A stretch of DNA of 54,490 nucleotides from Nitrospirota bacterium (GTDB lineage: Bacteria; Nitrospinota; Nitrospinia; SZUA-224), in assembly GCA_003229375.1 (NCBI GenBank), contig QIDP01000088.1, positions 1 to 54,490 on the forward strand. The letters run 5' to 3'. Below the pieces are notes generated by a model. The model was given only the letters and a program-made list of their open reading frames with translations, was not told where the DNA came from and did no database searches. The position numbers and the translations under genes are program-made. Below, one piece after another: positions 110 to 54,274 of this stretch; within the stretch, counting starts at the first letter, position 1; the number at the start of each line of letters is the position of its first letter.

Positions 110-137
110 TTGACTTTTCAAAAGAATAGAGTAGAAT
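110..137 (+). promoter_or_regulatory. candidate sigma70-type promoter
   Basis: TTGACT (110-115), 16-nt spacer, TAGAAT (132-137); followed by GGAGGGAGGTGA and a 20-codon ORF at 174-236. Confidence 0.25.
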
Positions 138-279
138 GTTTCCAAACTTCAGGAGGGAGGTGAAACTATAAATATGGCCAAGGCAACCAAATCAAAACAA
201 TTCAGCTTTAGCATGCCAAATAAATTTTCCGGTTAATCTATCCTGATCTCTGACCTCTGTGAACTGTTACCCGGTATCT

Positions 280-1608
280 TCATATCAGATAAGGCGCTTT
301 GGTTTGGGATGTATGACCCTTAATATCCTGGTTTTCGACTGTAAGCAAGTGGGTATTTATAAATTTCTCGAAATCGAGTTCCTCAACATATCTGTTTGGA
401 CCCGATGAGGGCACATTCAATGCCCCATTCAAACCTGTACCACTCTCTTTTATCTTTAAGAGGGTCTTAACCACATTGCTCTCTTCCCTGGATAATTTTT
501 CTAGCCTCTCCACCAGATTCTGCATCTTCTGTATCGGTTCGATAATATCCTCTTTTGCAACACTCTCTGTTTTCTTCAGACCTGGCGACTGGTTTGACAA
601 ATATAATGATAGTTCTTTTAAGTCTTCCGGAGAATAACTTGTCTTTTTCAATTCATTAATGACAAAGGTTTTAAACTTATCGAATCTTCGAGAGGTTTGG
701 GAAGGAGCTGTCCGGGCAGTCTTCTCTTCAACCTTCTTAACAGCAACTTCTGGAATAACATCCGCTTTCTTTTTTGGGCCTACAACAGCCCTCTTCATCA
801 GGTCAAAGGTCCTTTGCCAGAATCCCCTAACACCCTCCCCTTCATAATATGACGTGCCCTCCAGATTGCAGATATTATTTGCCAGATTCGTAATACACCT
901 GCTGGCAGCAGAAGATGGATAGAGAGTGAGAATTAATTTCTGCTGTTTAACCGCATCGGTCATATTCTTATCAGCGAGTACATAACCAAGAGATTCTATA
1001 TCGATCTTCAAAAATTTCTTGACGGCATATGCAAGCTTCTGAAATATCTTCTTTGATTCAGCTTCAGTAGAGACCTGATTTAATAATATCTTAATGTGTC
1101 CCTTAAAATTTTTGGAGACAATCACCTTAATCATGGCATAGGCATCGGTCAGGGATGTCGGCTCGGGTGTGACAATGATCATCACCTCCTCTGAAGCCAG
1201 TACAAAAGAGGTAACATTGGATGATATCCCTGCCGATGTATCTACTAACAGGATATCGGTCCCGCTGTCCAGATTAAGGGAATCCAGTTTGCTCAACAGT
1301 CTTCCCCTCTCTTCTGCACTTAGTTCTGATAACTGTTGAACACCTGAACTCGCAGGGATAATTTTCATCCCTCCGGGCCCCTCCAGGATAATATCCTTCA
1401 ATTCTTTATCACCCAGTATTACATGTTGAAGATCATATTCCGGATTGAGTCCCAATAGTACATTGATATTGGCAAGTCCCAAATCCGCATCAAAGATATA
1501 GACCTTTTTCCCCAACCGGGTAAATGCATAAGCCAGATTTGTGGATATATTAGTCTTGCCAACCCCGCCTTTGCCGCTGGTAACAGTAATTACTCTTGTT
1601 CCTGACAT
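280..1608 (-). CDS. MinD/ParA/FlhG-family P-loop ATPase with ~170-aa C-terminal extension
   Basis: 442-aa ORF; VITVTSGKGGVGKTNISTNLAYAF (deviant Walker A) and DADLGLANINVLLGL as in FlhG/MinD; C-terminal third has no motif I recognise. Confidence 0.85.
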   Translation of the reverse strand: MSGTRVITVTSGKGGVGKTNISTNLAYAFTRLGKKVYIFDADLGLANINVLLGLNPEYDLQHVILGDKELKDIILEGPGGMKIIPASSGVQQLSELSAEERGRLLSKLDSLNLDSGTDILLVDTSAGISSNVTSFVLASEEVMIIVTPEPTSLTDAYAMIKVIVSKNFKGHIKILLNQVSTEAESKKIFQKLAYAVKKFLKIDIESLGYVLADKNMTDAVKQQKLILTLYPSSAASRCITNLANNICNLEGTSYYEGEGVRGFWQRTFDLMKRAVVGPKKKADVIPEVAVKKVEEKTARTAPSQTSRRFDKFKTFVINELKKTSYSPEDLKELSLYLSNQSPGLKKTESVAKEDIIEPIQKMQNLVERLEKLSREESNVVKTLLKIKESGTGLNGALNVPSSGPNRYVEELDFEKFINTHLLTVENQDIKGHTSQTKAPYLI

Positions 1609-1659
1609 AAATGAATCACCTTTTAATTAAATTTAATTGAAACTTACTCATATCACTCT

Positions 1660-3465
1660 TTATACAATAGCCAAAACCTTAGTATGATTGTTCTCTATTA
1701 CAATACTGTATTTAACTGATTCACATCCTATCTTTTCTTTTATGCGAGCTGTATTCTGCACTATAAATTGCAAAAAGAGATTATTTTCCATTCTCTCGGT
1801 AGATTCATTACAGGTTTTCCTTGCCTTTATATAATTTTCAAATAAGTTCTCAACCTCTGATATCTCATTTTTCGGTTCTGATATCCGGGTGCTGCATAAC
1901 TCATTGATATTATCATAGGTATCACGGGCATATGGAAATTCCCGGCCATCATTTTGGTATTCATCTCTGTAAATGATATCCTGAACACGACGTATATCCT
2001 CTTCTGAGGCAAGGTAGTATGTTAGTTTGTAATTGGGCATGCTCTCCTGAAGCTGAACAGCCTCCTCCAGCATATATGTCGGGGAAGAGACTGCAATAGT
2101 CACTTTGTTGTTGTATAAATAGATAGGAACTGCCGAATATTTTTTGGAATAATTCCAGTCAATAATACCGGATAATATCTTCCTGCTCCTTTGAATATTT
2201 GGTAATCCGTCTAACCTGGTAAAAGAGAGATTATATTTATCAGATATAAGATTATTAAACTGTTCTTTGCTGATAGCGCCCTCTTTAAAGTAGAGACCAA
2301 TTTCAAAATCTTTATCAAATTTCCACTGGGGTTTGGAACACCATTTAATGACCGCCGGGGTACTCACAACCCCCAGGTTTTGGGGAAGGATTATCTCTAT
2401 CTTTGACTGAGAGCCGATTATCTTATCTGAAGCGTTCAGGAATTGCTGATCATCTGTCTTCAGCCTGACCCCGTCTATAGAGAGATCCTGGACAATACCA
2501 CGAATCGCTTTTGATGAATCATAGTTCCCGTTTCCATTAGGAAGGAAAAGGTTTATATCCATAGAAACAAACAATCTCGGGGATATCCTTCTCTCAATGC
2601 CTGCTGATTTCATCTTCTTCGATATCTCATTCAGACGATTCTCACAGTAATGACTTATAGTATCCTTAATCATAGGATACTTATCAGTATATCCTTCAAG
2701 ATCGGATTTTTTCAGCTCCAGCAATTCGGAATCCTCTAAAGCCACAACCGATGCTGTGCGGGGTTTACCGGTCAGGAAAGATATCTCTCCAAAAAAGTCA
2801 TCCTCCTTTAAGGTAGCCAGAGCTGTCTCCTGATTATCTGCATCACTAACAAGAATCCTTACCTTACCTGAACTTATGACATAGAGTGAATCGCTAAACT
2901 CCCCTTCTTTTATAATAGAGGACCCCTTAGGAAATTTGTGAAGGGTCATCTTCTTTGCAATCTCGGAGAATTCAGATGGGGTTAAACTGAAAAATATCGG
3001 AAATGAAGAGCGTACCTTGTCCTTATCCATACGAAAGACGGGTCTATCCTTAACCGTGGTTCCCAATCCATGTTTGGAGCAAAATTCGGATAGATCTCTA
3101 CGCAGATCATCAATCTGCTCCCTGGCCCTCTTTCTATCATCTAATCCATGCCTGGCATAGAGCTCGGATAGTTCTTTGTATATAACCTCTTTTGAGGGAT
3201 CGAGACTTACAATAGTCTTATTAATGGCAATGGCCTTGGTTAGAAAACCGTTATTAGCCAGCACATTGGATACATATACATATTCATCTATAGCTGTTTC
3301 AATTGCCCCTTCCTTGACATATAAATCTCCTAATTTTATCCTGAGCTTCAAATTTTTAGGCTCTAACTCTATAAGCTTCTTTAGTTCTATAATAGCCTTG
3401 TCCCAATAGCTCCACCTGCAATACTTTTCAAAATTTTCCTGGATCTGAATTCTGTTTTTGTCCAT
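1660..3465 (-). CDS. multidomain regulator: TPR-like / cNMP-binding / PilZ / PilB-N-terminal-like domain
   Basis: 601-aa ORF; cNMP phosphate-binding cassette FFGEISFLTGKPRTASV; PilZ motifs RRISPR and DLSIDG; YSAVPIYLYNNKVTIAVSSP...YYLASEEDIRRVQDIIY resembles the T2SS-E/PilB N-domain. Confidence 0.8.
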   Translation of the reverse strand: MDKNRIQIQENFEKYCRWSYWDKAIIELKKLIELEPKNLKLRIKLGDLYVKEGAIETAIDEYVYVSNVLANNGFLTKAIAINKTIVSLDPSKEVIYKELSELYARHGLDDRKRAREQIDDLRRDLSEFCSKHGLGTTVKDRPVFRMDKDKVRSSFPIFFSLTPSEFSEIAKKMTLHKFPKGSSIIKEGEFSDSLYVISSGKVRILVSDADNQETALATLKEDDFFGEISFLTGKPRTASVVALEDSELLELKKSDLEGYTDKYPMIKDTISHYCENRLNEISKKMKSAGIERRISPRLFVSMDINLFLPNGNGNYDSSKAIRGIVQDLSIDGVRLKTDDQQFLNASDKIIGSQSKIEIILPQNLGVVSTPAVIKWCSKPQWKFDKDFEIGLYFKEGAISKEQFNNLISDKYNLSFTRLDGLPNIQRSRKILSGIIDWNYSKKYSAVPIYLYNNKVTIAVSSPTYMLEEAVQLQESMPNYKLTYYLASEEDIRRVQDIIYRDEYQNDGREFPYARDTYDNINELCSTRISEPKNEISEVENLFENYIKARKTCNESTERMENNLFLQFIVQNTARIKEKIGCESVKYSIVIENNHTKVLAIV

Positions 3466-3507: not shown

Positions 3508-3864
3508 TTTACGAAAGAACCATATATATAAATAATATAATATATAACTATTTAATGTCAAGATATACAGCCCTGACAGCCCTGACATGTTTTTCCCTCG
3601 CCCTGCCCCCCAAGTGGAGAGAGAGCCAATACAAGCTCTATGGTCTTATTGTCTCCACACGGTCAAAGAGCCTTGCTTTTAGGTCAGGCACTAATTATAT
3701 TTTCTAATGTAATTATGATTAAAGATACAGTATCAAAAAATCGATCTTATGTCAAATATGCTATGGGGGAACCGTTGTTTTTATTTGGCAATAATGATAT
3801 TATAGCATCGAATTATCGCATATATCGCATAAATATAGTATATTTATATAAAAGAAATTTGGAT

Positions 3865-3894
3865 GGGTGACACGGACAAATAAATTTGTCCGTG
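3865..3894 (+). repeat. REP family 1, divergent copy
   Basis: GGGTGACACGGACAAATAAATTTGTCCGTG versus family consensus GGGTGGCATGGACAAACTTGTTTGTCCGTG; followed by AAATTTTTTAGAGGAAGG and the trxB ATG. Confidence 0.6.
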
Positions 3895-3921
3895 AAATTT
3901 TTTAGAGGAAGGAAAAAAACA

Positions 3922-4848
3922 ATGATGCGAAATATTATTATTATTGGATCCGGTCCTGCAGGACTGACAGCGGCTATCTATGCCTCCAGGGCAAATCTGA
4001 AACCATTAGTGATAGAGGGTCATCAGCCGGGGGGACAACTGACTATTACTACCGAAGTAGAGAATTATCCCGGCTTTCCTGATGGTATCATGGGGCCACA
4101 ACTGATGATGGATATGAAGAGACAGGCGGAACGCCTTGGTACTGAGTTTGTAATGGGATATGTAACATCTGCGGACATCTCAAAGAGACCTTTTGTAATC
4201 TATGTTGGAGAGGATGACAACAGATACGAGGCAAGGGCATTGATAATTGCCTCGGGTGCCTCTGCTAAGCTTCTCGATCTTGAATCAGAGAGGAAGTTGA
4301 TGGGGAAAGGTGTATCTGCTTGTGCAACATGTGACGGGTTTTTCTTCAAAGAGCAGGATGTCATGGTGGTAGGGGGAGGGGATACTGCACTGGAGGAGGC
4401 AATATTCTTGACTAAGTTTGCCGGAAAGGTGACTGTTATACACAGGAGGGATATGTTAAGGGCTACAAAAATATTGCAGGATAAGGCATTTAAGAATGAA
4501 AAGATAGATTTCATATGGGACTCTGTAGTAGAAGATATCCTAGGGGTAGAAGAGGGGAAGGTTACAGGTATAAGGCTAAAAAATGTCAAGACATCAGAGA
4601 TCATTGAGAAGGGTTGTGAAGGCATTTTTATTGCTATCGGTCATTCGCCAAATACGAAGCTGTTTAATAGTCAGATAGAACTGGATGATAAGGGTTACAT
4701 TATTACGAGGGATGGCACTAAAACCAGTGTGCCCGGGGTGTTTGCAGCAGGGGATGCTCAGGATCATGTGTATAAGCAGGCTATTACAGCAGCGGGTACA
4801 GGCTGCATGGCAGCCATAGATGCCGAGAGATTCCTGGGGGAAGAATAA
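3922..4848 (+). CDS. trxB: thioredoxin-disulfide reductase
   Basis: IIIIGSGPAGLTAAIYASRA FAD motif, redox-active CATCDG, VVGGGDTALEEA NADPH motif; start moved to the ATG at 3922 behind AGAGGAAGG (the track ORF starts at a TTG inside the REP). Confidence 0.95.
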   Translation: MMRNIIIIGSGPAGLTAAIYASRANLKPLVIEGHQPGGQLTITTEVENYPGFPDGIMGPQLMMDMKRQAERLGTEFVMGYVTSADISKRPFVIYVGEDDNRYEARALIIASGASAKLLDLESERKLMGKGVSACATCDGFFFKEQDVMVVGGGDTALEEAIFLTKFAGKVTVIHRRDMLRATKILQDKAFKNEKIDFIWDSVVEDILGVEEGKVTGIRLKNVKTSEIIEKGCEGIFIAIGHSPNTKLFNSQIELDDKGYIITRDGTKTSVPGVFAAGDAQDHVYKQAITAAGTGCMAAIDAERFLGEE

Positions 4849-4849
4849 A

Positions 4850-5680
4850 ATGAAGATAAAATTCTGGGGTGTAAGAGGGAGCATTCCAACACCTGGATAT
4901 TCAACCCTCAAGATCGGAGGAAATACCAGTTGTGTTGAGATAAGGGCCGGAGATGAACTGATTATTATTGATGGCGGCAGCGGGCTTAGGTTGCTCGGAG
5001 AAAGTTTATTAAAGGAGATACCCCTTAAGGGGATGTTTCTCTTCAGTCATTATCACTGGGACCATATTCAGGGATTCCCTTTTTTTTCACCTGCATATAT
5101 CAAGGAGAATGAGTTTCAAATCTTCGGGGGAAATGGGTTGAGTTATAGCCTCCAGAAATCTCTCTTCGGACAGATGGACCATCCGAACTTCCCTATTGAA
5201 CTTAAAAACATGGGATCTAAAATGGTATTTCACGAACTCCTTGAGGGGGAGGAAATTATAAAGGGCGGGGTAAAAATATCCAATACCTTTGTGAATCACC
5301 CGAGCAGTTCCCTCGCATATCGCATAGATCATGAGAATAAATCCTTTGTTTATAGTAGTGATACCGAGCATCTTCCTGATGGAGTAGATCAAAAATTACT
5401 GAAGTTTGCAAAAGGCGCTGATATCATTGTATACGATGCGCAGTATACCCCTGAAGAGTATGAGGGAACTCATAAATGGTGGGGATCAAGGAAAGGATGG
5501 GGGCACAGCACCATGATAGAGGGTGTTAAACTGGCAAAAGCGGCTGGCATCAAGAAGCTCGTTCTGTCTCATCACGACCCCTCGCGTGATGATGATGCTA
5601 TAGCAAGGATAGAAAAGGAGGCCCAAAGGCTTTTCCCGAACTCAATAGCAGCCTATGAAGGATTAGAGATATATATATAA
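4850..5680 (+). CDS. MBL-fold metallo-hydrolase
   Basis: MKIKFWGVRGS..., HxHxDH motif SHYHWDHIQG, later SHHDP; ATG at 4850 lies 1 nt after the trxB stop behind GGGGGAAG. Confidence 0.85.
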   Translation: MKIKFWGVRGSIPTPGYSTLKIGGNTSCVEIRAGDELIIIDGGSGLRLLGESLLKEIPLKGMFLFSHYHWDHIQGFPFFSPAYIKENEFQIFGGNGLSYSLQKSLFGQMDHPNFPIELKNMGSKMVFHELLEGEEIIKGGVKISNTFVNHPSSSLAYRIDHENKSFVYSSDTEHLPDGVDQKLLKFAKGADIIVYDAQYTPEEYEGTHKWWGSRKGWGHSTMIEGVKLAKAAGIKKLVLSHHDPSRDDDAIARIEKEAQRLFPNSIAAYEGLEIYI

Positions 5681-5684
5681 TAAG

Positions 5685-7700
5685 ATGAAAGAAAGGCTAA
5701 AAGAAATAGAACAAGAGATGATAAGGAACAAAAGGGCCTTCTGTCTCTTTAACAAAAAGAGACTGGAGCGGGCATTAGAGATGCTCCCGGAAATGACCGG
5801 CCTTGCTTTTCAGGTTATACCATTTCTTATACATACCAATCATAAAGGTTTTCCCGGTTATGTTGATGCCCGGGATACCCCATGTGGAATACATTACTTT
5901 GAGTGGTCAAATAATTTGCAGAGGATAACAAGGGAATTTTTTCCGGAAAAGAAGATCCTCTATAAGGGTGCAATAAAGCTCTTTCCAAATATTCCCTCTA
6001 TCGAATCCTTACTCCTGATGGGGAGCATCGGTACTGTGGCACAGACCGAAAGATCTGATTTCGATTACTGGGTCTGTATAAATGAGGAGAATTTTTCTGA
6101 TAAGAGAAAAAAACTGTTGAGAGAAAAATTGAGGCTAATAGAGGATTGGGGATCTTCCGAGTATGAAATGGAGATCCACTTTTTCATGGCAGATATAAAT
6201 AAGGTCAGGAGAGATGACTTTGGAGAAAGTGACAGTGAGAGTGTTGGGTCTGCCCAAAAAAAACTGCTTAAAGAGGAATTTTACAGGACCCTTATCCTGA
6301 TAGCCGGCAAGATACCACTCTGGTGGATAACACCTATTGATATCTCAGATGAGGAATATTCTGAGTGTATTGATATTCTCAAAAAATCGGTTGAACTTGA
6401 GTATGAGAACTTTATTGACCTTGGAAATATACGTGATCTATCCCCAAACGAATTCTTAGGGGCTACCCTCTGGCACAGGATCAAGGCAATGGATTCCCCT
6501 TATAAATCTACCCTGAAAATGGCACTGGTAGAGAAATTCATGGATCAGGATGTACAATCAGAACCTCTCTGTAATCTCTTTAAAAAGAGTGTGATGAAAT
6601 CGCCGGATAATAGCCAAACAATCGATCCTTATACAATAATGTTTGACACAATACTCGATTATTACCAGAAAAAGGGGAATATGGAGATCCTTGATCTGCT
6701 GAAAAAAAGTTTTTATATAAAAACAGATATAAAAGTGAACAGATCTGATCGTTTCAGGAAGGATTTGACCTATAAAGAGAAGGTACTGGTAGATTACGTT
6801 AAAAAGTGGGGATGGGATCAGGAGGTGCTTGAGGATCTGAATAGCTTCAAAGAATGGGACTTTGATAAAATTATATCCTTAGAAAGGGATATGCATAACT
6901 ACATGATACAGGTCTATAAAAACCTTGCTGATAAACTGAAAAAGGAATCAGGTGGTGAGAATCTGATAAAAGATACAGATTTTCAGATGTTAGGGAGGAA
7001 GTTATCCAGCTTTTATGCAAAAAAGCCGAATAAGGTTGAGTCTCTAAAAAAGGCCTTCTGGGAAAAGTTGCCACAGGAGAACCTTACATTCTTATTTAAC
7101 AATAAAAGGGCTAAGTGGTATTTATACAGGGGACATTCTTCAAAGGAGTTTATATTAACTTCCGGGGATCAACACCTTAAGAGCGCTAAAAATATTCTTG
7201 AACTCCTGATATGGATTGTCCACAACAGACTATGCGATGAGAATACTACCTTTTATCTGACACCTAACCCAAAACCCATTACTTTTGCGGATATTCAGAT
7301 ACTTATTAAGGATCTTCTGGACTTCTTTCCAGCGATAAACACAATCGATCTTAAGACATCTGACCTCCTCGCCCCACCCAGAATAGTTAAATTATATCTG
7401 GTAATAAATTTCTCCCTCCAGAAGTCGTTGAATCAGATTAAAGAAGTCACTATATTCTATACCACCACATGGGGAGAGCTATTTTGTGAGACGTATAATC
7501 ACATGAAAGGGATTAAAGAAGCCATTAAATATATCTCGGAGAATCCTCCGGAAAATATCAATGATATCTCTAACTATTACAGGATATTTATCCCGAAGGG
7601 AGATTTTTCTAAGACCATCTTTTCTAATATTAATAATCTGATAACAAAGGAACTCGGGAGTATGGATGAAGGTCTCTATAATAATACCTACTTTGAATGA
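5685..7700 (+). CDS. cyaA: class I adenylate cyclase (CyaA-like)
   Basis: 671-aa ORF; blocks GSIGTVAQTERSDFDYWVC, KKLLKEEFYRTLILIAGK and EFLGATLWHRIKAMDSPYKSTLKMAL match conserved blocks of enterobacterial CyaA as I recall them. Confidence 0.8.
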   Translation: MKERLKEIEQEMIRNKRAFCLFNKKRLERALEMLPEMTGLAFQVIPFLIHTNHKGFPGYVDARDTPCGIHYFEWSNNLQRITREFFPEKKILYKGAIKLFPNIPSIESLLLMGSIGTVAQTERSDFDYWVCINEENFSDKRKKLLREKLRLIEDWGSSEYEMEIHFFMADINKVRRDDFGESDSESVGSAQKKLLKEEFYRTLILIAGKIPLWWITPIDISDEEYSECIDILKKSVELEYENFIDLGNIRDLSPNEFLGATLWHRIKAMDSPYKSTLKMALVEKFMDQDVQSEPLCNLFKKSVMKSPDNSQTIDPYTIMFDTILDYYQKKGNMEILDLLKKSFYIKTDIKVNRSDRFRKDLTYKEKVLVDYVKKWGWDQEVLEDLNSFKEWDFDKIISLERDMHNYMIQVYKNLADKLKKESGGENLIKDTDFQMLGRKLSSFYAKKPNKVESLKKAFWEKLPQENLTFLFNNKRAKWYLYRGHSSKEFILTSGDQHLKSAKNILELLIWIVHNRLCDENTTFYLTPNPKPITFADIQILIKDLLDFFPAINTIDLKTSDLLAPPRIVKLYLVINFSLQKSLNQIKEVTIFYTTTWGELFCETYNHMKGIKEAIKYISENPPENINDISNYYRIFIPKGDFSKTIFSNINNLITKELGSMDEGLYNNTYFE

Positions 7701-8340
7701 GAAGATTAATTTGGAAAAGACCCTCCCTCATCTTGAAAAGATGGAAGACAAAGAGATAATCATTGTAGACGGAGGAAGCACAGATAATACAGCAAGTGTG
7801 GCAAAGAGATATGCGGATAAACTTCTTTTATCATGTCAGGATAGGGGAATCCAGATGAATACTGCTGCACATAATGCTGAGGGTGACATGCTCCTTTTTC
7901 TGCACGCCGATTCGGAACTCTCTACAGATGGATACAATAAATTGCTTGAGGCTTCAGAGGTGAGAGGTATTGCGGGTGGCGCCTTCTACCTCGCAATAGA
8001 TTCAAAACGATTCCTCCTTAAGTTTATCTCCCTTGCAGCCAATCTCAGATCCAAATTATTCAGAATAGCCTATGGGGACCAGGGGATCTTTGTAAGGCGC
8101 GATATCTTCGTTAAAATAGGAGGATTTAACAATCTCCCTTTATTTGAGGATGCAGACCTCTTCAGACGATTAAAGAGGGAAGGAGAGGTGATCTTCATTA
8201 AAAGTATTCTCACATCTGCACGCAGATGGGATGGAGAAGGTGCATTATATACTACTTTCAGGAATATGATACTTGCCTCCTTCTACTTCCTAGGTTTCTC
8301 ACCACAAACACTGATTAGGTGGTATCCAAATGTGAGGTAA
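7666..8340 (+). CDS. family 2 glycosyltransferase
   Basis: MKVSIIIPTLNE, IIVDGGSTDNT, LLFLHADS; start overlaps the cyaA end by 35 nt. Confidence 0.8.
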   Translation: MKVSIIIPTLNEKINLEKTLPHLEKMEDKEIIIVDGGSTDNTASVAKRYADKLLLSCQDRGIQMNTAAHNAEGDMLLFLHADSELSTDGYNKLLEASEVRGIAGGAFYLAIDSKRFLLKFISLAANLRSKLFRIAYGDQGIFVRRDIFVKIGGFNNLPLFEDADLFRRLKREGEVIFIKSILTSARRWDGEGALYTTFRNMILASFYFLGFSPQTLIRWYPNVR

Positions 8341-9484: not shown

Positions 9485-9485
9485 C

Positions 9486-11552
9486 CTATTCCTCACTCAT
9501 TACTATCGTTGGTGTTATAAAGACCAGGAGTTCTGAATCCTCATCCTTCCCTATCTTTTCCCTCTTGAATAACCAGCCCAGTACAGGGATATTGTTCAAC
9601 CACGGGATACCGGACATCTCTCCGGATGTTTTGCTCGTATAAAGACCTCCAATGACTGTGGTATCACCGTCCTTTATCAGAAGCTCTGTGGTTGCCTTTT
9701 TCTGCATTATAGTCGGCATACCCGCTGACTGGTTGGCAAAATCTGCCTCGTCCTTGGTGACCTCTACACTCATAGCTACATAGCTATCAGGGGTAATATG
9801 GGGTGTAACAGTCAAGCTTATACTTGCATCCACAAATTGTGTCCGCGTCCCGCTCGCTGAAACACTCTGGTAAGGAATCCTGCGTCCGCTTTCAATTACT
9901 GCTTCTTTATTATTCAATGTAGTAATCTTTGGATTCGACAATATCCTTCCTTTACCAGAGCTTTCCATGGCAGAAAGCTGGATATCCAGTATCTTTGTAT
10001 TGGCTATATTACCCAGAGTTATCCCTATGCCACCTCCTGCTGTACGGGCAATTGCTGCAGGCAGATCTACTACATAGTTCCCTGTGGTAACTTCCTGAAT
10101 ACCGCCATAAACCTGTGAAGGGGCAGTAAGAGCTCCTTTCACACTGGTGCTGGCAGGAAAGCTTTGGCTGCTGGAGTCAGTAGTGTATGTGCCGCCCCAC
10201 TGGATACCCAGTTCCCTGGTATAGTTACGGTTTATCTCCACAATCCTTGCCTCGATCATAACCTGGGGTGTCCTCCTGTCCAGTGTCTTGATAAGGGTCT
10301 TCATTTCCTCCAGCTTGGGCCTGATATCCTTAAGTATCAAGGTGTTTGTACGGACATCTACTGTTACCGATCCCCTCTCACTCTTAAGGGACTCCAGGTT
10401 ATCCTTCATTTCTGATATATCTGCATAACTTATACGGATTATTTCTGTGAGGAGGGGATCTGCCATCTCCTTTACCTTTTTTGCATCTATCTCTGCCTGT
10501 TTACTCTGTGCCTTATCCTGCTGTTCCTTGAGCAGTTCATTAAGGGGGAGTATTCTGATAATATTTCCCTCCTTCTCCATCCCCAATTTGCCGTTCTTCA
10601 ATATAATATCCAGCGCCTGATCCCATGGCACATTTTTTAAACGTAACGTCACCTTCCCCTTTACAGAGCCGGAGGTTATGATGTTATATCCACTTACCTC
10701 TGTAATAAGGCGAAGGATATTCTGAATATTGGCATTCTGAAAATCAAGGGAGATACGTTTGCCCGTATATTGCTTTTTCTCTTTCCCGGCTTTGGATTTC
10801 GCAGCAGTTACTTCCACAACCTCAGGGACCAGATAATCTTTTTTACCGGACTTTGCTTCTGCCTTTATCTCTATCTCTTCTTTTGTCTCTGACAGGACTT
10901 CGGCAGGAGCTTCTACTTCCACTTCTTCCACTTCTTCTATTGCTTCCACTTCTTCTACCTCTATCTCTTCATTTGTTTCTGACATGACCCCGACAGGGGG
11001 TTCTACTTCCTCCACCTCTACTACTTCTTCTACCTCAACGGCATAGGATGGAAGGATATCAGCAGGTTCTTCTAATAGTGGCTCCTCAATCATGGAGGGA
11101 GGATTTTTAATATCAATAAAGATGATATTGTTTTGGGGTCTCAGTATTTCATAGGGGACAATTTGATTCAGCCCTATCTCTATCCTGGCTATATTGCTCT
11201 CAAATTGAACGGGTTTAATCACATTTACTGCCCCTTTGTTTAGCTCGATAGGATCCTGGAATGTCCCTGTCTCTATACCGGGGATATCAAGTATCAATCT
11301 CAGGGGATTATCCATTTTAAAGGCTGTATACTGAATCACACCATCAAGCTCATCAGTCGCTTCAATAGAGATCCCGACACCATCAGGGAGCGTCTCTGAG
11401 TCGATTCTCATTATAGCCGGTATCTTCTGCATCTCTGTTTCAGGTATTTTGGAGACCTTCCTAACTGCACAACCATATAAAGCCATGCTCGCAATCGATA
11501 TAAAGATCAGCGGTATTATCAATATTTGCAATCTTCTCTTTTGTCTTTTCAC
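9486..11552 (-). CDS. pilQ: type IV pilus secretin PilQ (lipoprotein, AMIN-like N-domain)
   Basis: Lipobox LYGC; AMIN-like segment ...NPLRLILDIPG...; Glu/Val-rich linker; secretin C-domain ...GIPWLNNIPVLGWLFK... Confidence 0.9.
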   Translation of the reverse strand: MKRQKRRLQILIIPLIFISIASMALYGCAVRKVSKIPETEMQKIPAIMRIDSETLPDGVGISIEATDELDGVIQYTAFKMDNPLRLILDIPGIETGTFQDPIELNKGAVNVIKPVQFESNIARIEIGLNQIVPYEILRPQNNIIFIDIKNPPSMIEEPLLEEPADILPSYAVEVEEVVEVEEVEPPVGVMSETNEEIEVEEVEAIEEVEEVEVEAPAEVLSETKEEIEIKAEAKSGKKDYLVPEVVEVTAAKSKAGKEKKQYTGKRISLDFQNANIQNILRLITEVSGYNIITSGSVKGKVTLRLKNVPWDQALDIILKNGKLGMEKEGNIIRILPLNELLKEQQDKAQSKQAEIDAKKVKEMADPLLTEIIRISYADISEMKDNLESLKSERGSVTVDVRTNTLILKDIRPKLEEMKTLIKTLDRRTPQVMIEARIVEINRNYTRELGIQWGGTYTTDSSSQSFPASTSVKGALTAPSQVYGGIQEVTTGNYVVDLPAAIARTAGGGIGITLGNIANTKILDIQLSAMESSGKGRILSNPKITTLNNKEAVIESGRRIPYQSVSASGTRTQFVDASISLTVTPHITPDSYVAMSVEVTKDEADFANQSAGMPTIMQKKATTELLIKDGDTTVIGGLYTSKTSGEMSGIPWLNNIPVLGWLFKREKIGKDEDSELLVFITPTIVMSEE

Positions 11553-11556
11553 TCCC

Positions 11557-12261
11557 CTATCCCTCCTCTTTTTGCAGTTTCAAATATACTGTTTCGGTAA
11601 TCACCTTTCCCAGATAATCAACATATTTTTCCTCAACAACAAGGGCAGCACTGATTATATCTCTGACTATCCCGTTATTTCCCCCTAATACCATACCCCT
11701 CTTTATAGTATATCCCCTGCCATCTGCTGTTTCTATAAGTGCATTACTCCCTAACCCGCCCAAAATTATTCCCACCACTTTTAAAGAAAGAAGGTTGACC
11801 CTTGCAAGCGGATGTCTGTGGATCACACCTTTATACTTATTATTCGCACGTACCCTCAAGCTCTTATATTGCTCAATCTCATTCCTTCGCTCCTCGGCAG
11901 TGAGCTCTTTGAATGACTCCAGATCCTTAAAGAAATCTTCATACCTGGTTATTTCTCTGTACATTTCATGATCATTCTTTTTGATATACTCATATGTAGC
12001 TATATCAATCTTGAGATCCTGGAGCTCCTTCTCACTCAATTTGCGAAACCCCTCTGTGGAGAAGCCTATATCGAATAGCAGCGATTTAAATGGATCTCTT
12101 TTTCCTGCAGGATCATATGAATAGACAGGTTCTTCTTTTGCCTCTTCTTCTGCAGCAGAGATGGAGACAGCTCTTAAATTGATAACACCGGAAAGTATTA
12201 CTATAATAGCGATAATAAAAGCAAACCTGATTCCTTTGTTTATTATATCCTGCATCTTCAT
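11557..12261 (-). CDS. pilP: PilP-like pilus assembly protein
   Basis: N-terminal membrane anchor; C-terminal beta-domain LKVVGIILGG..ALIETADGRGYTIKRGMVLGGNNGIVRDI; sits between pilO and pilQ. Confidence 0.65.
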   Translation of the reverse strand: MKMQDIINKGIRFAFIIAIIVILSGVINLRAVSISAAEEEAKEEPVYSYDPAGKRDPFKSLLFDIGFSTEGFRKLSEKELQDLKIDIATYEYIKKNDHEMYREITRYEDFFKDLESFKELTAEERRNEIEQYKSLRVRANNKYKGVIHRHPLARVNLLSLKVVGIILGGLGSNALIETADGRGYTIKRGMVLGGNNGIVRDIISAALVVEEKYVDYLGKVITETVYLKLQKEEG

Positions 12262-12878
12262 TTCTTCTTTTTCTTCTTTTTGGCTGCTGCTGCACCCTCA
12301 ATATACTTAAAAGTAGTGGCTTTACATTTGGTCTCCAGGACAGGTATTTTGTCCTGTGTTTTTACCTTCATCTTTATATCGGTTATATTCACAACCCGTG
12401 TAAGCCTCCTCACCCTGTCAAAGAATGTAGCTATATCATGAAATCTCCCTATAATGTTCATCTCAACAGGGACCTTAGAATAAAAATCTACACGCTTTTC
12501 CGGAAGTGGTTTAAAGAGCATGAATTCCAGGCCTTCCTGCGAGCCTAAATCAGATATCTGCGTCAGCAGTTCCGGTATCTCTTTGCCGTCCGGCAGTTGG
12601 ATGCGGGCAAAGGATAATTCATGGTTCAGTCTCTCTATCTCTTTCTCTAAGGCGGGCTGCTTTTCGATATACCTTTCATGTTTATTGTATTCATCCTCCA
12701 GACCTTTAAGCTTCGTACCCAGGGTCTTTATATCCCTGTCATTTCCCCTGTAAGAAAAGGAATAATATAGCAAAAATATCAGGAGTATTGCCACTCCTGC
12801 TGCCAGCCACCTCTGCCAGACAGGAAACTCCTCTATCCTGTCATATGGTATATTATCAAGAAGATTCCCTATCTCCAT
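12258..12878 (-). CDS. pilO: PilO
   Basis: Single TM, coiled coil, then ...IPELLTQISDLGSQEGLEFMLFKP...VPVEMNIIGRFHDIATFFDRV; 4-nt overlap with pilP. Confidence 0.8.
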   Translation of the reverse strand: MEIGNLLDNIPYDRIEEFPVWQRWLAAGVAILLIFLLYYSFSYRGNDRDIKTLGTKLKGLEDEYNKHERYIEKQPALEKEIERLNHELSFARIQLPDGKEIPELLTQISDLGSQEGLEFMLFKPLPEKRVDFYSKVPVEMNIIGRFHDIATFFDRVRRLTRVVNITDIKMKVKTQDKIPVLETKCKATTFKYIEGAAAAKKKKKKK

Positions 12879-13424
12879 TTATTTCTTCCCCTTTTTCCCG
12901 CAATTGATTACAAACTTCCTTGCCTTTTCACCCTGAACAGATGCCTGTTTGGATTCCTGTAATTCTACATTAGCCAGGTATTTCAATCGCTCAAGATTTT
13001 TCATAAATCTTGCAATGCCCGGATCCGAGAACGAAAATCCTTTGATCTTTATCATGGATGCATCTTCCGAGAAAAATGTAAGCCATATCTCATCAGGAAG
13101 ACTCATATTTATATCATCCATAACACTCGCAGGATTTACCTGATTCTTCTTCAGCCCGGAAATAACCTTAATTATATGCTCTAATCTTTCCTTCTTCTCC
13201 TCAAACTCCTTTACTGTATCTACAGTCTTTTTTATATCATTCAGTTTTTTCTCTGCTTTTTGAATCTCACTATTCATATGCTTTTTTTCATTCTTTTGTA
13301 GATACAAGGAGACCCCTATTACCCCGAGTGATAAGAGCAGCAGGATTACTGACCAGAGGATCTGGCTCTGGATACTGGCGATCTTCTTGGCCTTCCTGTA
13401 ATCTAACAGATTTATCTTTATCAT
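12879..13424 (-). CDS. pilN: PilN
   Basis: MIKINLLDYRK start, TM segment, coiled coil; 4-nt overlap with pilM. Confidence 0.85.
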   Translation of the reverse strand: MIKINLLDYRKAKKIASIQSQILWSVILLLLSLGVIGVSLYLQKNEKKHMNSEIQKAEKKLNDIKKTVDTVKEFEEKKERLEHIIKVISGLKKNQVNPASVMDDINMSLPDEIWLTFFSEDASMIKIKGFSFSDPGIARFMKNLERLKYLANVELQESKQASVQGEKARKFVINCGKKGKK

Positions 13425-14512
13425 CTATCGTCAAATCTCCTCATAGCCAGTCCAATACTTGTTGCAGCTATGGGCGCCATATCTTTTATGTACCCGGGAT
13501 CAAATATATTATAATTTACCTTAATATGCTTAAAGGGATCAACTATCTCAACCGGTAATCCCAGGCTATTGGCTAAAAACCTGTCAATCCCCTCCATAGC
13601 AGCCCAGCCCCCGCTTAGCACAACCTTATCTATCTCCCTATTGGCAGCAGTACTATAAAATTCAAAGGATTTAGCGATCTCCTGTGAAAGACTCTCTGTG
13701 GCCGAGGTTATAATGGGTATTACCTCCTTATGGGAAACCCCTTCTGTCTCTATTCCCATCTTGAGATTTTCAGCCACCTCGGGCCCTACTGTTAATTCAT
13801 TCTGGATTGCATGGGTACACACATTACCCCCTATACTCAGGTCCCTTGTGAAAGAGGTTAACCTCCCCTCAAGGATATTGATATTTGTCAAAGATGCTCC
13901 AATATCAACCAGGGCTACAACCTCCCCTTCCTGGAATCCATAGTTAAACTCATATTCATTTTCAATAGCAAAGACATCCAGATCTATTACAACAGAATGC
14001 AATCCGGCACCATTGATCAAGCTGATGCGTTCTGCAATTACATCCTTCTTAACTGCCACCAGGATCACATCCATCTGGTCTTCAGGTTCTTCCTCTTCCA
14101 ACCCTCCTTCTTTTGGATCCTCTACCCGGGTCTTCTGGATTATCTGAAAATCGATATTGACATCGTCAATATCAAAGGGGATATACTGCTCTGCCTCCAG
14201 CGATATAGATTCGGCCAGCTCTTCATCTGTCATAACAGGAACATTTATCTTTTTTATAATAACGGATTCACCCGATATAGCAGTAACAACATGTTTTGTC
14301 TTTAGCTTTTCACAGGAAACAAGTTTCCTGATTGCCTCTGTTATGTCCTCCGGTTTCTCTATAACCCCATCGACAATAGCATCAGGAGGAACAGGCATGA
14401 TCCCGAAACTCACCAACTGGAAACCCTTTCTTGTCTTGTTGAGACGGGCTAATTTTACAGAATGGGCGCCTATGTCCAATCCGATAACCTCTGTATTCTT
14501 TGTTACAAACAC
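13421..14512 (-). CDS. pilM: PilM (actin-like ATPase fold)
   Basis: IGLDIGAHSVKLARL..., VVALVDIGASLTNINIL, VVLSGGWAAMEGI. Confidence 0.9.
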   Translation of the reverse strand: MFVTKNTEVIGLDIGAHSVKLARLNKTRKGFQLVSFGIMPVPPDAIVDGVIEKPEDITEAIRKLVSCEKLKTKHVVTAISGESVIIKKINVPVMTDEELAESISLEAEQYIPFDIDDVNIDFQIIQKTRVEDPKEGGLEEEEPEDQMDVILVAVKKDVIAERISLINGAGLHSVVIDLDVFAIENEYEFNYGFQEGEVVALVDIGASLTNINILEGRLTSFTRDLSIGGNVCTHAIQNELTVGPEVAENLKMGIETEGVSHKEVIPIITSATESLSQEIAKSFEFYSTAANREIDKVVLSGGWAAMEGIDRFLANSLGLPVEIVDPFKHIKVNYNIFDPGYIKDMAPIAATSIGLAMRRFDDR

Positions 14513-24389: not shown

Positions 24390-24577
24390 CCCTTTCTGAT
24401 TTGAAACTACCTTTTCAAAATTAGTTGATTAAGTTGATTAGTTGAAACTCTTTTCATTTTTTTTCTAATTTCCAATTTCAGTGTTCTGTGAACGCTTACA
24501 ATAAAATCTATTAACATACTCAACCAATCAACATTCTCCTATCTATTTCTCCTTCCACGAGATTACCCTGCTGTTTG
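24386..24577 (-). repeat. 192-nt leader block, copy 1
   Basis: About 96% identical (6 substitutions, 1 indel by eye) to 28352-28542; spans a pilY1 3' end, the intergenic region and the first codons of the next gene. Confidence 0.85.
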
Positions 24578-28355: not shown

Positions 28356-28542
28356 CCCTTTCTGATTTGAAACTACCTTTTCAAAATTAGTTGATTAAGT
28401 TGATTAGTTGAAACTCTTTTCATTTTTTTCTAATTTCTAATTTCAGTGTTCTGTGAACGCTTACAATAAAATCTATTGACATAATCAACCAATCAACATT
28501 CTCCTATCTATCTCTCCTTCCATGAGATCACCCTGCTGTTTG
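28352..28542 (-). repeat. leader block, copy 2
   Basis: See 24386-24577. Confidence 0.85.
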
Positions 28543-39084: not shown

Positions 39085-39422
39085 TGTCTTGCCTCCTCCC
39101 ATGCTATGATTTCTTCTACAATATTGTTGATAACAATCAACTTCACCATAGAATGTATTGCAATATCCTTCTTTTCTATAGCGTTATCCCTGTAAGTCAC
39201 CCTCACAGAGGGCGAGACATTGAAGGAAGAGAGAATATCAGTTTTGCTGTCAACAATACTCACTCTATCCTCCTTAAAGCCTGCAAAAAATCCCTCATGT
39301 GTCTCTATAATTCCATAATGTGAAGACTCATTACCAAACAGACTGGAATGACCCGCATCCATGCTCATAAAGGATATAACCATGACTATAATCATAAAAA
39401 TCATAAATCTATTGCTTTGCAT
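39081..39422 (-). CDS. small secreted hypothetical protein
   Basis: 113-aa ORF, signal-like FMIFMIIVMVISFMSMDA; sits between pilX-A and pilY1-A; no motif recognised. Confidence 0.5.
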   Translation of the reverse strand: MQSNRFMIFMIIVMVISFMSMDAGHSSLFGNESSHYGIIETHEGFFAGFKEDRVSIVDSKTDILSSFNVSPSVRVTYRDNAIEKKDIAIHSMVKLIVINNIVEEIIAWEEARQ

Positions 39423-52060: not shown

Positions 52061-54274
52061 TCAGATTACCCTATCTCCTCCCATTATAGAGATCTTCTTG
52101 TCAGCCTCGTTTAACCTTGAAATCAGAGAATTGACTATACGAATAGCGATTTCCGGATAGTTCTCAATAGTTTCTTTCAGCTTATCCCCCGGAAAGACCT
52201 TAACTACACTCTTCCCATTCGATTTGACAGTAGCGGTTCTTGCTACATCCATAAGTGCGCTCATCTCGCCAAAATAGTCTCCCGGCTGGGTTATCTCTCC
52301 TACCTTTATGTCATACTTATATATCTCCACGGCTCCCTGAATCAATTGATAGAAATTCTTGTCTGTATTCCCTTCCTTGATTATCACGTCACCATTCTCA
52401 AAGATCAGTTCATCCGGATTCAGGAGATATGCAGGGAGTGCCTCTTTTACCATCACCGTATTCCTCAACACCTCATATATGGTAGTAACCCCCTCCCTGA
52501 TCTTATGCAGCCCTTCCTGACGCAAGGTAGACATGCCCTCCTTTATGGCAATCTTTCTCAACTGCTCCTGAGGAACCTGTGATGTGATTGCCTCCTTAAT
52601 AGTCTCGGGGATCTCCATTATCTCATAGACTGCCACTCTTCCCTTGTACCCTGTGCCGGCACATTTCGGGCACCCCTTGCCTTCAAAGATTTTCAGGCTA
52701 TCAAATTCGTCAGAGGTAAACCCTGCCTCAATCAATTCCCTCTTGTTGGGTTTTACCTCCTCTTTGCAATTGGTACAGATGCGGCGTAAAAGTCTCTGGG
52801 CAATAACCATTGTCAGAGAGGAGGCAATCATATAACCGGGTATGCCTATATCCAGAAGCCTCCATACAGTAGATGGACAGTCATTCGTATGAACTGTGCT
52901 GAATACCAGATGACCTGTCATGGCAGCCTTTATTGCAATCTCGGCTGTTTCCATATCTCTGATCTCACCAACAAGGATGATCTCGGGATCTTGTCTCAAG
53001 AAGGCCCGTAATGCATTTGCAAAGGTCATTCCGATCTCTGTCTTGACATGGACCTGATTGATCCCGGGAAAGTTGAACTCTACAGGGTCCTCTACGGTCA
53101 GGATCTTGGTTTCGACATTATTTAAGGCATTTATCGCAGAATAGAGGGTCGTTGTCTTCCCGCTCCCGGTAGGGCCTGTCACAAGAATCTGACCGAATGG
53201 CCGTTTTATGGTCTTCATAAATTTATCCAATCCCTCTTGTGTAAAACCGAGTTTTGTAAGATCGACATTCAGGGTAGATTTATCCAGAATACGAAGGACT
53301 ATAGACTCTCCAAATAAGGTAGGAAGTGTGGAGACCCTGAAATCAACGGTTCTATTTCTTCCTACCTTCAATTTTATACGTCCGTCCTGAGGGATACGCC
53401 TCTCTGCTATATTCAGATTTGCCAGTATCTTGAACCTGGAAATCAGCGCATTCTTAATCTGTATAGGGAGGTTAAGTGATCTATGGAGGGTGCCGTCAAG
53501 GCGATATCTTACCTGAAAGGTACTTTCAAAGGGCTCTATATGTATATCACTAACACCCATTTTTATCGCCTTTGTCAGGATACTGTTCACCAGTTTGATA
53601 ATAGGGGCATCGCCTGCCGAGTATAGATCTTCTCCGATATCCTTATCATCAGGTTCATTGTCAACAGCTATCTCATCTGTTGCCTCGGAGACAAGTGAGC
53701 CAATATCATCGATATCCTTTATCTCCAATGATTTATCATCGCCTCCACTATCTATCTTCTTGAAGAATCCCTTGTATTCTTCATCACTTATATGGTAATA
53801 GCTCTTATAGGCATCGATTATATCCTTCTCTTGTGAAACCGCGGCCTTTATTGAGAGCTTTGTCATGGTCTGAATATCTTCTATGGTAGTGTTGTTTGTA
53901 GGATCACACATAGCGAGTGTCAATACATTGTTAGCCACCCTAACCGGAAATATCATATGCTCCTTTGCAACTTCATAGGGTAATACCTTGACCGTCTCAG
54001 GGTTAATCTTAAGATCTGTTATCTTTATCGTACTATACCCATACTGCCTGCTCAGGAAATTGATAATGGTATCCTCATCTATAAAACCCATCCTAACCAG
54101 GATTGAACCTATACGACTTTTATTCTTCCTTTGAACGGCTAATGCCTCATCTAACTGGGATTTGGTAATTAGTCCGTCTTTCCTGAGCATATCTCCCAGT
54201 TTTTCATGTTTTATCCCGCCCTTTATTGTCTTTTTAAAAGCTGATTTCTTTTCTGCTAGCTGCACTTGTGCCAT
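52061..54274 (-). CDS. pilB: type IV pilus extension ATPase PilB with C-terminal cNMP-binding domain
   Basis: T2SS-E N-domain, Walker A GPTGSGKTTT, tetracysteine CTNC...CPKC; extra C-terminal ~130 aa with ...GDYFGEMSALMDVARTATV. Confidence 0.9.
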   Translation of the reverse strand: MAQVQLAEKKSAFKKTIKGGIKHEKLGDMLRKDGLITKSQLDEALAVQRKNKSRIGSILVRMGFIDEDTIINFLSRQYGYSTIKITDLKINPETVKVLPYEVAKEHMIFPVRVANNVLTLAMCDPTNNTTIEDIQTMTKLSIKAAVSQEKDIIDAYKSYYHISDEEYKGFFKKIDSGGDDKSLEIKDIDDIGSLVSEATDEIAVDNEPDDKDIGEDLYSAGDAPIIKLVNSILTKAIKMGVSDIHIEPFESTFQVRYRLDGTLHRSLNLPIQIKNALISRFKILANLNIAERRIPQDGRIKLKVGRNRTVDFRVSTLPTLFGESIVLRILDKSTLNVDLTKLGFTQEGLDKFMKTIKRPFGQILVTGPTGSGKTTTLYSAINALNNVETKILTVEDPVEFNFPGINQVHVKTEIGMTFANALRAFLRQDPEIILVGEIRDMETAEIAIKAAMTGHLVFSTVHTNDCPSTVWRLLDIGIPGYMIASSLTMVIAQRLLRRICTNCKEEVKPNKRELIEAGFTSDEFDSLKIFEGKGCPKCAGTGYKGRVAVYEIMEIPETIKEAITSQVPQEQLRKIAIKEGMSTLRQEGLHKIREGVTTIYEVLRNTVMVKEALPAYLLNPDELIFENGDVIIKEGNTDKNFYQLIQGAVEIYKYDIKVGEITQPGDYFGEMSALMDVARTATVKSNGKSVVKVFPGDKLKETIENYPEIAIRIVNSLISRLNEADKKISIMGGDRVI

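Follow-up and report, generated by a model that had tools for sequence, protein, structure and literature searches.

The recruitment and gating of type IV pilus extension ATPases is the question raised by a two-gene locus in a 54,490-nt stretch of DNA (contig QIDP01000088.1; the whole stretch is hereafter called the window, and coordinates are window positions). Its first gene, geneA, encodes a 601-aa multidomain adaptor that joins an SgmX-like tetratricopeptide repeat (TPR) part, a cyclic nucleotide monophosphate (cNMP)-binding domain, a putative PilZ domain, an ND1/MshEN_C domain and a MXAN_5187_C domain, and its second gene, geneB, encodes a 442-aa MinD/FlhG-type ATPase with a C-terminal extension. 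We found that an MshEN-module gene and a gene for a tailed MinD/ParA-type ATPase together constitute a conserved two-gene cassette that has not been described before, and that in geneA the predicted sensor of cyclic di-GMP (c-di-GMP) of this module has been exchanged.

In the keyword-matched passages of a 2024 review of PilB (PMC11656802), the cofactors named are PilZ/FimX and phage- or host-encoded inhibitory peptides, and every passage on cAMP concerns Pil-Chp/Vfr transcriptional control; since the terms MinD, FlhG and TadZ are absent from the searched text, it gives no MinD-type partner for type IVa pili. The locus offers one polypeptide that would read both cAMP and c-di-GMP and use docking domains derived from PilB as its output, a MinD/FlhG-type ATPase as its conserved partner, and a PilB that itself carries both predicted ligand sites. 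Should the link to the pilus be true, defined parts become available for testing how second messengers control where pili are placed; should it be false, the MshEN module and its tailed ParA still make up an uncharacterised c-di-GMP effector pair that deserves a name and a phenotype.

The domains of geneA

Both open reading frames (ORFs) on which the original prediction was built are real, and lie on the same strand with a 51-nt gap between them and geneB downstream (Table 1). They are likely co-transcribed, because a strong promoter-like site precedes geneA and a consensus scan found no terminator-like site in the gap, both observations being consensus matches only.

The C-terminal half of geneA resembles a PilB without its ATPase core, judging from profile searches and structure models. 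Pfam MshEN (PF05157) matched residues 433-501 with 25.7 bits against a cut-off of 23.1, all four clade members matched it too (best E 1e-6), and positions 35-142 of the PilB model TIGR02538 aligned to geneA residues 392-505 and no further; the T2SSE ATPase core (PF00437) gave no match in geneA. An AlphaFold model of residues 386-601, based on a trimmed 17-sequence module alignment, contained two domains and had a mean pLDDT (predicted local distance difference test) of 81.6. Foldseek matched the first of these, the ND1-like domain (pLDDT ~85-91), with a probability of 1.00 to 8pkz, 8pdk, 5htl, 7lkm and 6ejf and of 0.98 to 2d27, the matches being Thermus PilF GSPII-B/A, V. cholerae MshE-N, X. 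citri PilB-N and XpsE-N. The suggestion that this segment is like PilB's N-terminal domain is thus supported by profile and fold alike, for the α/β subdomain only. The second domain, which the original prediction did not contain, matched NF041621 (MXAN_5187_C) over residues 537-596 with 46.6 bits against a cut-off of 30 and was modelled at a pLDDT of 85-94; its model had no significant match among PDB folds, and MXAN_5187 was not mentioned in the literature searched, including the supplements of the MshEN paper (PMC5013675). An identification of MXAN_5187 with FrgA was rejected, FrgA being MXAN_3225.

When geneA residues 286-601 were searched exhaustively with HMMER against 1.84 billion representative proteins, only 33 proteins were returned. 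About 12 of the 33 (231-467 aa) aligned over the full ND1 and MXAN_5187_C unit, lacked the ATPase and had N-termini with one to four MshE-type c-di-GMP helix motifs (NF053729); another homologue, P0180, consists of cNMP and PilZ domains and the module, with no TPR. As the relatives carry MshE-type motifs and geneA and P0180 carry cNMP and PilZ domains instead, a c-di-GMP input appears to be conserved across the module family. We also built a hidden Markov model (HMM) of MXAN_5187_C from ATPase-less proteins only, so that the search would not be circular, and it found the domain at the extreme C-terminus of two PilB/GspE-like proteins, P0184 (704-780 of 782, 72 bits; L015 155-2503) and P0204 (41 bits); not one of the 178 control proteins gave a match. 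The geneA module therefore appears to correspond to the N- and C-terminal accessory domains of a PilB-like ATPase minus the motor core. The mimicry of PilB that had been suggested gains support from this finding and from X. citri PilB, whose ND1 is the surface for PilZ and presents a separate face corresponding to the GspL/EpsL (PilM homologue) site of GspE/EpsE (PMC8389850). P0184 and P0204 are ~780 aa long, and their C-terminal MXAN_5187_C domain occupies the position at which the PilB of the window has a cNMP domain.

The ways in which the members of this family would sense c-di-GMP differ. Neither the published relaxed regular expression for the 24-residue MshEN_N motif nor NF053729 matched geneA or its close homologues; the same expression matched the window PilB and the module proteins P0181 and P0187. 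Relatives in the trimmed alignment carry a second MshEN_N motif (xLGxxLxxxGxIxxxQLxxxLSxQ), and at its position geneA and P0180 retain the helix tail only (EQFNNLISDK), the glycine-containing start of the motif being replaced by the last PilZ strand. By this alignment, the predicted sensor in geneA and P0180 has changed from MshEN_N to PilZ at the same position, and because the c-di-GMP helix motifs are lacking, the MshEN-like part of geneA would not be a third ligand site.

The PilZ assignment was upheld by its motifs and fell short in the profile search. The RRxxxR and DxSxxG c-di-GMP motifs (RRISPR and DLSIDG in geneA) have canonical spacing and do not vary among five sequences with identities as low as 36%, and Pfam PilZ (PF07238) matched residues 291-379 with 19.5 bits, below its cut-off of 22.5. 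All four clade members and P0180 matched this model at E ~1e-3 (5e-4 to 1e-3 in the clade; 20.6 bits for P0180). A PDB sequence-profile search with the region gave no matches, and in a full-length AlphaFold2 (AF2) model from 15 sequences the pLDDT was below 50 across residues 290-390, because only four sequences cover them. On the strength of motif conservation together with the sub-threshold matches we accept residues 288-392 as a putative PilZ domain; a canonical domain of this kind would bind c-di-GMP. Annotation by HMM and structure, which had been named as the check to be made, hence bears out the T2SSE_N-like part in both respects and leaves PilZ below threshold.

Evidence for the cNMP-binding domain is of another order. 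Pfam PF00027 matched residues 176-259 with 85.3 bits against a gathering threshold of 27.5 (E 2.9e-24), and the phosphate-binding cassette FFGEISFLTGKPRTASV at residues 224-240 is intact, as had been claimed, with G226, E227 and R236 invariant across 15 sequences. AF2 predicted a confident β-roll, and PKG, PKA-R and CRP were matched in the PDB with E down to 1e-25. The proposal of two second-messenger sites in geneA, cNMP and PilZ, thus stands on sequence evidence.

The SgmX-like character of the first 113 residues was absent from the original prediction. Positions 1-112 of the NCBIfam SgmX model (NF052243) matched geneA residues 1-114 (E 1.1e-11, 43.9 bits), far better than generic TPR models (E 2e-4 or worse; Pfam TPR matches were weak and confined to residues 21-60), and BLASTP aligned residues 1-113 to residues 1-113 of P0035 and P0037 (E ~1e-17), long TPR proteins whose own best family is SgmX. 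The region was modelled by AF2 at a pLDDT of 75-91. With 43.9 bits against the equivalog cut-off of 1800 and only ~3 of 14 TPRs, geneA is not itself an SgmX, and by these alignments shares an N-terminal module with SgmX-type proteins. Proteins of ~400 aa from Holophagales and other groups (P0004-P0027; for example L016 8001-9245) have an SgmX-like N-terminal TPR followed by two cNMP domains, and on this architecture the family is the apparent parent of the N-terminal half of geneA.

geneB and the conserved gene pair

The description of geneB as a MinD/FlhG-type ATPase with an unrecognisable tail was borne out. Its core (residues 1-255) matches ParA, AAA_31 and CbiA in Pfam and is ~50% (50-52%) identical to ~300-aa proteins annotated as FlhG; its scores are below the MinD equivalog cut-off (TIGR01968, 101.9 bits against 212.9) and that of minD_arch (137.7 against 201.75), and no minC or minE adjoins it. 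In an alignment with the FlhG-like proteins P0084 and P0093, geneB begins four residues ahead of the P-loop strand, and the 35-45 extra N-terminal residues of these proteins, including DQAMTLR, have no counterpart in it. As it lacks this FlhF-activating N-terminus (DQAxxLR type), geneB is not an FlhG orthologue. No flhF or fliA was seen in L001-L016 or among the window ORFs, many of which were judged from their first 70 residues only.

Directly after the core, residues 260-277 (GFWQRTFDLMKRAV) contain an FW segment that is conserved in all partner ATPases and FlhG-like proteins. They are not among the six strongest amphipathic windows by hydrophobic moment; by analogy with the membrane-targeting sequences of MinD/FlhG, they may bind the membrane. 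The tail that follows the core (~170-185 aa) matches no family, and the ~165 residues of it beyond the FW segment are rich in K, E, L and S, yet it ends in a short motif, [LIVM]DFE.[FWY], which is present in geneB, L005, P0062, L009, L010 and L013/14 and has a variant, LNFEEF, in P0061. The motif lies 6-26 residues from the C-terminus in four independent lineages whose tails are otherwise unalignable, occurs in at most 3 of 20,000 shuffles of each tail, and is found among 120 FlhG-like matches only in geneB and the tailed homologue P0062. The shape of this LDFE-x-aromatic motif (acidic or amide, aromatic, Glu, any, aromatic) resembles the NWETF tether of chemoreceptors.

A module gene directly followed by a MinD/FlhG-like ATPase gene was found at eight loci from five lineages, with pairs in the window, L001, L005, L006, L007, L009, L010-12 and L013/14. 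L001, L005 and L006 are close relatives that keep the pair, and a fragment with 68% identity to geneB begins 19 nt after P0180. P0186, P0193 and P0187 are only 19-22% identical to geneA over the module, and downstream of each, at a distance of 3-102 nt, lies a gene for a ParA/MinD-type ATPase of 363-391 aa. In their cores the partner ATPases share 40-44% identity with geneB, and the complete ones lack the FlhG N-terminal extension, keep the FW segment and mostly end in LDFE-x-aromatic. The pairing of geneA with an ATPase, proposed from the one locus, is therefore much stronger than sequence alone could show, since it recurs in lineages that share only 20-30% identity in the module.

The full architecture of geneA is rare, with three full-length homologues and one truncated locus in 5.8 billion protein clusters, and two loci, both on short contigs, in 185,579 GTDB species genomes. 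A metagenome scan with the close-clade geneA alignment matched unrelated cNMP proteins only. The closest homologues are annotated as proteins of Nitrospinota metagenome-assembled genomes; the GC fraction of the window is ~0.42.

Neighbouring genes and a possible role in pilus-motor licensing

Divergently from geneA runs an apparent operon of trxB, a metallo-β-lactamase (MBL)-fold phosphodiesterase of the Apyc1 type, a class I adenylate cyclase (cyaA) and a glycosyltransferase (Table 1). Apyc1 (Pfam Anti-Pycsar_Apyc1) is a family of cyclic-nucleotide phosphodiesterases, and the operon is an apparent compact unit for making and breaking cAMP, judging from its gene content. L005 retains its order in full, L006 has trxB and the MBL gene up to the contig end, and L004 has ORFs that match the operon in size and order (sizes only, unannotated).

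Table 1. Features of the window (residue numbers refer to the encoded protein).
Feature	Position	Strand	Description
geneB	280..1608	-	442-aa ORF, MinD/FlhG-type ATPase with C-terminal extension
LDFEKF	361..378	-	geneB residues 411-416; short conserved motif near tail end
Candidate membrane-targeting segment	778..831	-	geneB residues 260-277; aligned with C-terminal helix of FlhG-like proteins
ATPase core	844..1608	-	geneB residues 1-255; deviant Walker A GKGGVGKT, residues 12-19
geneA	1660..3465	-	601-aa ORF, multidomain adaptor
MXAN_5187_C domain	1663..1905	-	geneA residues 521-601; predicted β-α-α-β-β
ND1/MshEN_C α/β domain of PilB/GspE-type ATPases	1966..2268	-	geneA residues 400-500; Pfam and Foldseek
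Putative PilZ domain	2290..2604	-	geneA residues 288-392; RRISPR 292-297, DLSIDG 327-332
cNMP-binding domain	2611..3018	-	geneA residues 150-285; Pfam PF00027
TPR part	3127..3465	-	geneA residues 1-113; three TPR-like hairpins that align co-linearly with the start of SgmX-type pilus activators
Promoter-like site	3532..3561	-	~70 nt upstream of geneA; TTGACA, 16-18 nt spacer, TATATT/TATTAT; sigma-70-like, 11/12 consensus positions; consensus match only
Divergent operon	3886..8340	+	trxB, Apyc1-like MBL phosphodiesterase, class I adenylate cyclase, glycosyltransferase (Pfam, NCBIfam)
Apyc1-like MBL-fold enzyme	4820-5680	+	orthologues in L005 and L006 match PF23023 (Anti-Pycsar_Apyc1)
Class I adenylate cyclase	5685-7700	+	671 aa (short); 2.2 kb from geneA; absent from the original prediction
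aroB	8408-9496		follows pilQ
pilM-N-O-P-Q	9486..14512	-	candidate docking platform
PilQ	9486-11552	-	identified only from reading the translation
PilM	13421-14512	-	PilM_2, 244 bits
PilY1-like paralogue	17234-21118	-	~1220-1290 aa; preceded by own minor-pilin-like gene set
PilY1-like paralogue	24543-28355	-	as above
PilY1-like paralogue	28508-32173	-	as above
PilY1-like paralogue	35368-39102	-	as above
IS200/Y1-type transposase-like gene	43664-44296	-	inside pilus cluster
982-aa protein	44633-47581	-	signal-peptide-like N-terminus, no Pfam match; adjoins transposase-like gene
PilB	52061..54274	-	MshE-type c-di-GMP motif (25-77), MshEN, ATPase core, C-terminal cNMP domain (625-706)

A cyclase and an Apyc1-family phosphodiesterase near a cNMP-binding protein, together with PADLOC matches of geneA to PycTIR and effector models, could also point to a Pycsar-type anti-phage system composed of cyclase, cNMP-binding effector and Apyc1-like enzyme. 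We consider this highly improbable and reject it on domain content: the PADLOC matches are confined to the cNMP domain (residues 167-289), effector domains such as TIR or transmembrane ones are absent from geneA, the cyclase belongs to class I (CyaA) and not to the PycC type, neither CyaA nor the MBL protein has a PADLOC match, and distant lineages have the cassette without any cyclase.

Beyond the operon the window holds pilus genes. The three ORFs between pilM and pilQ are taken as pilN-O-P by size and position alone. PilB passes the equivalog cut-off of TIGR02538 (745.7 bits against 675.65) and matches NF053729 (65.4 against 38) and PF00027 (54.1 bits), and is the only T2SSE-family ATPase among the window ORFs scanned. 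Since it carries a c-di-GMP motif and a cNMP domain, PilB and geneA would read the same two messengers, and this PilB is a candidate partner or target of geneA. The geneA domains are not recent duplicates of those of PilB, an origin that we rejected at 29% identity for cNMP and 20% for ND1. The C-terminal cNMP domain of PilB in itself suggests a direct cyclic-nucleotide control of the extension ATPase, and similar architectures occur in metagenomes (P0043, P0047). With its four PilY1/minor-pilin sets, this single locus has an unusually large stock of complexes for the pilus tip or for priming, beyond which lies a sigma-54 two-component pair. Converging on the 3' end of geneB is a 20-codon ORF, MAKATKSKQFSFSMPNKFSG (110-236, plus strand), with a GGAGG ribosome-binding site and a promoter-like TTGACT and TAGAAT separated by 16 nt.

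Together these features led us to a tentative proposal, that geneA and geneB form a co-transcribed signalling cassette which licenses or blocks the pilus motor from engaging at a particular place; of the functions considered for the pair, pilus licensing has the best support and is plausible and unproven. In the mechanism that we infer, geneA would be a cytoplasmic adaptor with no enzymatic domain, its C-terminal half would copy both non-catalytic end domains of an ATPase of the PilB type and omit the motor core, and its N-terminal half would contribute two ligand sensors and, with the SgmX-type TPR, a surface for interaction. Of the sensors, the cNMP domain would most likely bind cAMP that the neighbouring class I cyclase makes and the neighbouring Apyc1-like phosphodiesterase removes, and the PilZ domain would bind c-di-GMP. 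The ATP-bound dimer of geneB would probably sit on the membrane via its amphipathic helix, and would hold or release geneA via the dimer face or the LDFE-x-aromatic peptide at the end of its flexible tail. Ligand occupancy would then alter the packing of PilZ on the ND1-like domain, and the altered packing would expose or hide the surfaces that in a real PilB/GspE dock PilM/GspL and PilZ, whereupon the complex, docked on the pilus base, may license or block the engagement of a type IV pilus motor at that place. The content of the window agrees with this proposal, as it holds cyaA, a cNMP phosphodiesterase, pilMNOPQ and a PilB with a c-di-GMP motif and a cNMP domain.

Several points weigh against it. 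Five genes, four of them on the other strand, separate geneA and geneB from pilQ, and L001 does not keep the cAMP operon, its cyaA side being replaced. PilZ is below the Pfam threshold and its fold is not confirmed by the model. With a Thr behind the Arg of the cassette (PRTASV), and with cGMP-dependent kinases as the best matches in the PDB, cGMP stays in play as a ligand, although the adjacent cyaA favours cAMP, which we take as most likely from the gene context. The nearest match to the core of geneB is FlhG, which regulates flagella. At the two loci examined, the TPR-cNMP-cNMP relatives had neither pilus nor MinD genes around them, and the module protein P0181 (L008) has no ParA-type neighbour. 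The original prediction had further expected the pair to be linked phylogenetically with type IV pilus genes, and such linkage did not emerge: the 8 kb around each distant cassette contain no structural gene of a pilus, and the contigs of the close geneA relatives are too short to test it. The distant cassettes (L009, L010, L013/L014) are flanked instead by double-REC regulators, HDOD/HD proteins and histidine kinases. These flanks suggest that phosphorelay and c-di-GMP turnover feed the same module; we dropped a reading of the upstream regulators as PatA-type, as NCBIfam identifies them as double-REC proteins with a weak PatA_N match only.

Given that no pilus gene lies near the distant cassettes and that the close-clade contigs are so short, a different cargo is a serious rival. 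The cassette would in that case be a general c-di-GMP-responsive module for positioning or assembly, serving a flagellum, a chemosensory array, a type II secretion system (T2SS) or a polysaccharide secretion machine, and its presence in a pilus-rich window would be coincidental. The FlhG-like core of geneB speaks for such a cargo, as do the two-component and HDOD/HD genes beside the distant cassettes and the che cluster beside L008, pil genes never being neighbours; ND1 domains are also common to the GspE of T2SS, and MinD/ParA ATPases position many cargoes (10.1101/2020.04.03.021790; PMC7439463). On the other hand, geneB has no N-terminus of the kind that activates FlhF, the additional N-terminal part of geneA resembles SgmX specifically, and the one T2SSE-family ATPase among the scanned window ORFs is a PilB by its equivalog score and shares both predicted ligands with geneA. 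Moreover, the window ORFs examined showed no genes of the flagellar, che or gsp kind, some having been judged by domain search and the rest by their first 70 residues, ORFs below 120 aa beyond 12 kb being unlisted. On balance we regard a non-pilus cargo as doubtful.

Within pilus control, geneA could also act mainly as a decoy inhibitor, its ND1-like domain occupying the PilM site that PilB needs, with cAMP or c-di-GMP relieving or imposing the block and geneB only sequestering geneA at the membrane. An ND1 fold without an ATPase core would suit such a role, docking of ND1 on GspL/PilM is documented (PMC8389850), and the window PilB has an ND1 of its own. Yet at only ~20% identity between the two ND1 domains an equivalent binding is not assured, and the SgmX-like N-terminus points to activation, not inhibition. 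We therefore think it quite improbable that geneA is mainly a decoy, although the present data do not decide the sign of its effect, activation or decoy inhibition.

Returning to licensing, its most specific form would be a new class of pilus-motor control, in which PilB end domains copied onto an ATPase-less protein (ND1 and MXAN_5187_C) integrate cAMP and c-di-GMP, a dedicated MinD-type ATPase delivers them to the PilM platform via the LDFE-x-aromatic tether, and the pair decides where and when the dual-messenger PilB engages. This version is unlikely as a whole; were it true, the cassettes of MshEN module and tailed ParA would represent a widespread and unrecognised c-di-GMP output for type-IV-filament machines.

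Comparison with known systems

The closest parallel to the input is the FimX-PilZ-PilB system of Xanthomonas and Pseudomonas (PMC8389850), where c-di-GMP reaches the extension motor via a PilZ-fold protein that packs on the ND1 of PilB, much as geneA puts PilZ next to an ND1-like domain. The Xanthomonas PilZ, however, is a separate protein that does not bind c-di-GMP, and its ND1 partner belongs to a real ATPase, whereas the PilZ of geneA keeps both motifs and shares an ATPase-less protein with its ND1; the geneA system also has no FimX, and has a cNMP domain and a MinD-type partner. The MshEN receptors of MshE/PilB and the ATPase-less MshEN proteins (PMC5013675) have the same α/β MshEN_C fold, and the wider module family has their canonical MshEN_N motifs, but geneA has PilZ in place of MshEN_N, and neither the MXAN_5187_C companion nor the ParA-type partner is described there.

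SgmX, a pilus activator of Myxococcus (PMC9811614, PMC7519303), is co-linear at its N-terminus with the first 113 residues of geneA, which fall inside the TPR1-8 region, the pilus-activating domain of SgmX (PMC9811614). Unlike SgmX, geneA has ~3 of the 14 TPRs and none of those that bind MglA or FrzS.

A partnership of similar logic is that of BcsE and BcsQ(R) in enterobacterial cellulose secretion (PMC7439463), where an adaptor that binds c-di-GMP brings in an ATPase of the MinD family for the regulation of an envelope nanomachine, though with unrelated sensor domains (degenerate REC-GGDEF), on a different machine and with a BcsQ tail of 10 residues, as opposed to the long tail of geneB. Archaeal MinD4 and bacterial TadZ/CpaE (10.1101/2020.04.03.021790; PMC13170226) are likewise MinD/ParA-type ATPases that position type-IV-filament-like machines. 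MinD4 positions archaella, and the conserved end segment of its long C-terminal extension is required for localisation (10.1101/2020.04.03.021790); its membrane-targeting helix, however, stands at the very end, whereas in geneB the candidate helix directly follows the core and the tail ends in LDFE-x-aromatic. TadZ differs by an N-terminal receiver-like domain, and neither TadZ nor MinD4 has a partner gene for a second-messenger-binding protein. FlhG/FleN, finally, shares with geneB ~50% core identity, the deviant Walker A and the FW amphipathic helix, and differs in that geneB has no activator segment of the DQAxxLR type, an extra tail of ~165 aa and no flhF among the window ORFs examined. 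Set beside these systems, geneA and geneB consist of known domains in an undescribed combination, a second-messenger adaptor together with a MinD/ParA-type ATPase.

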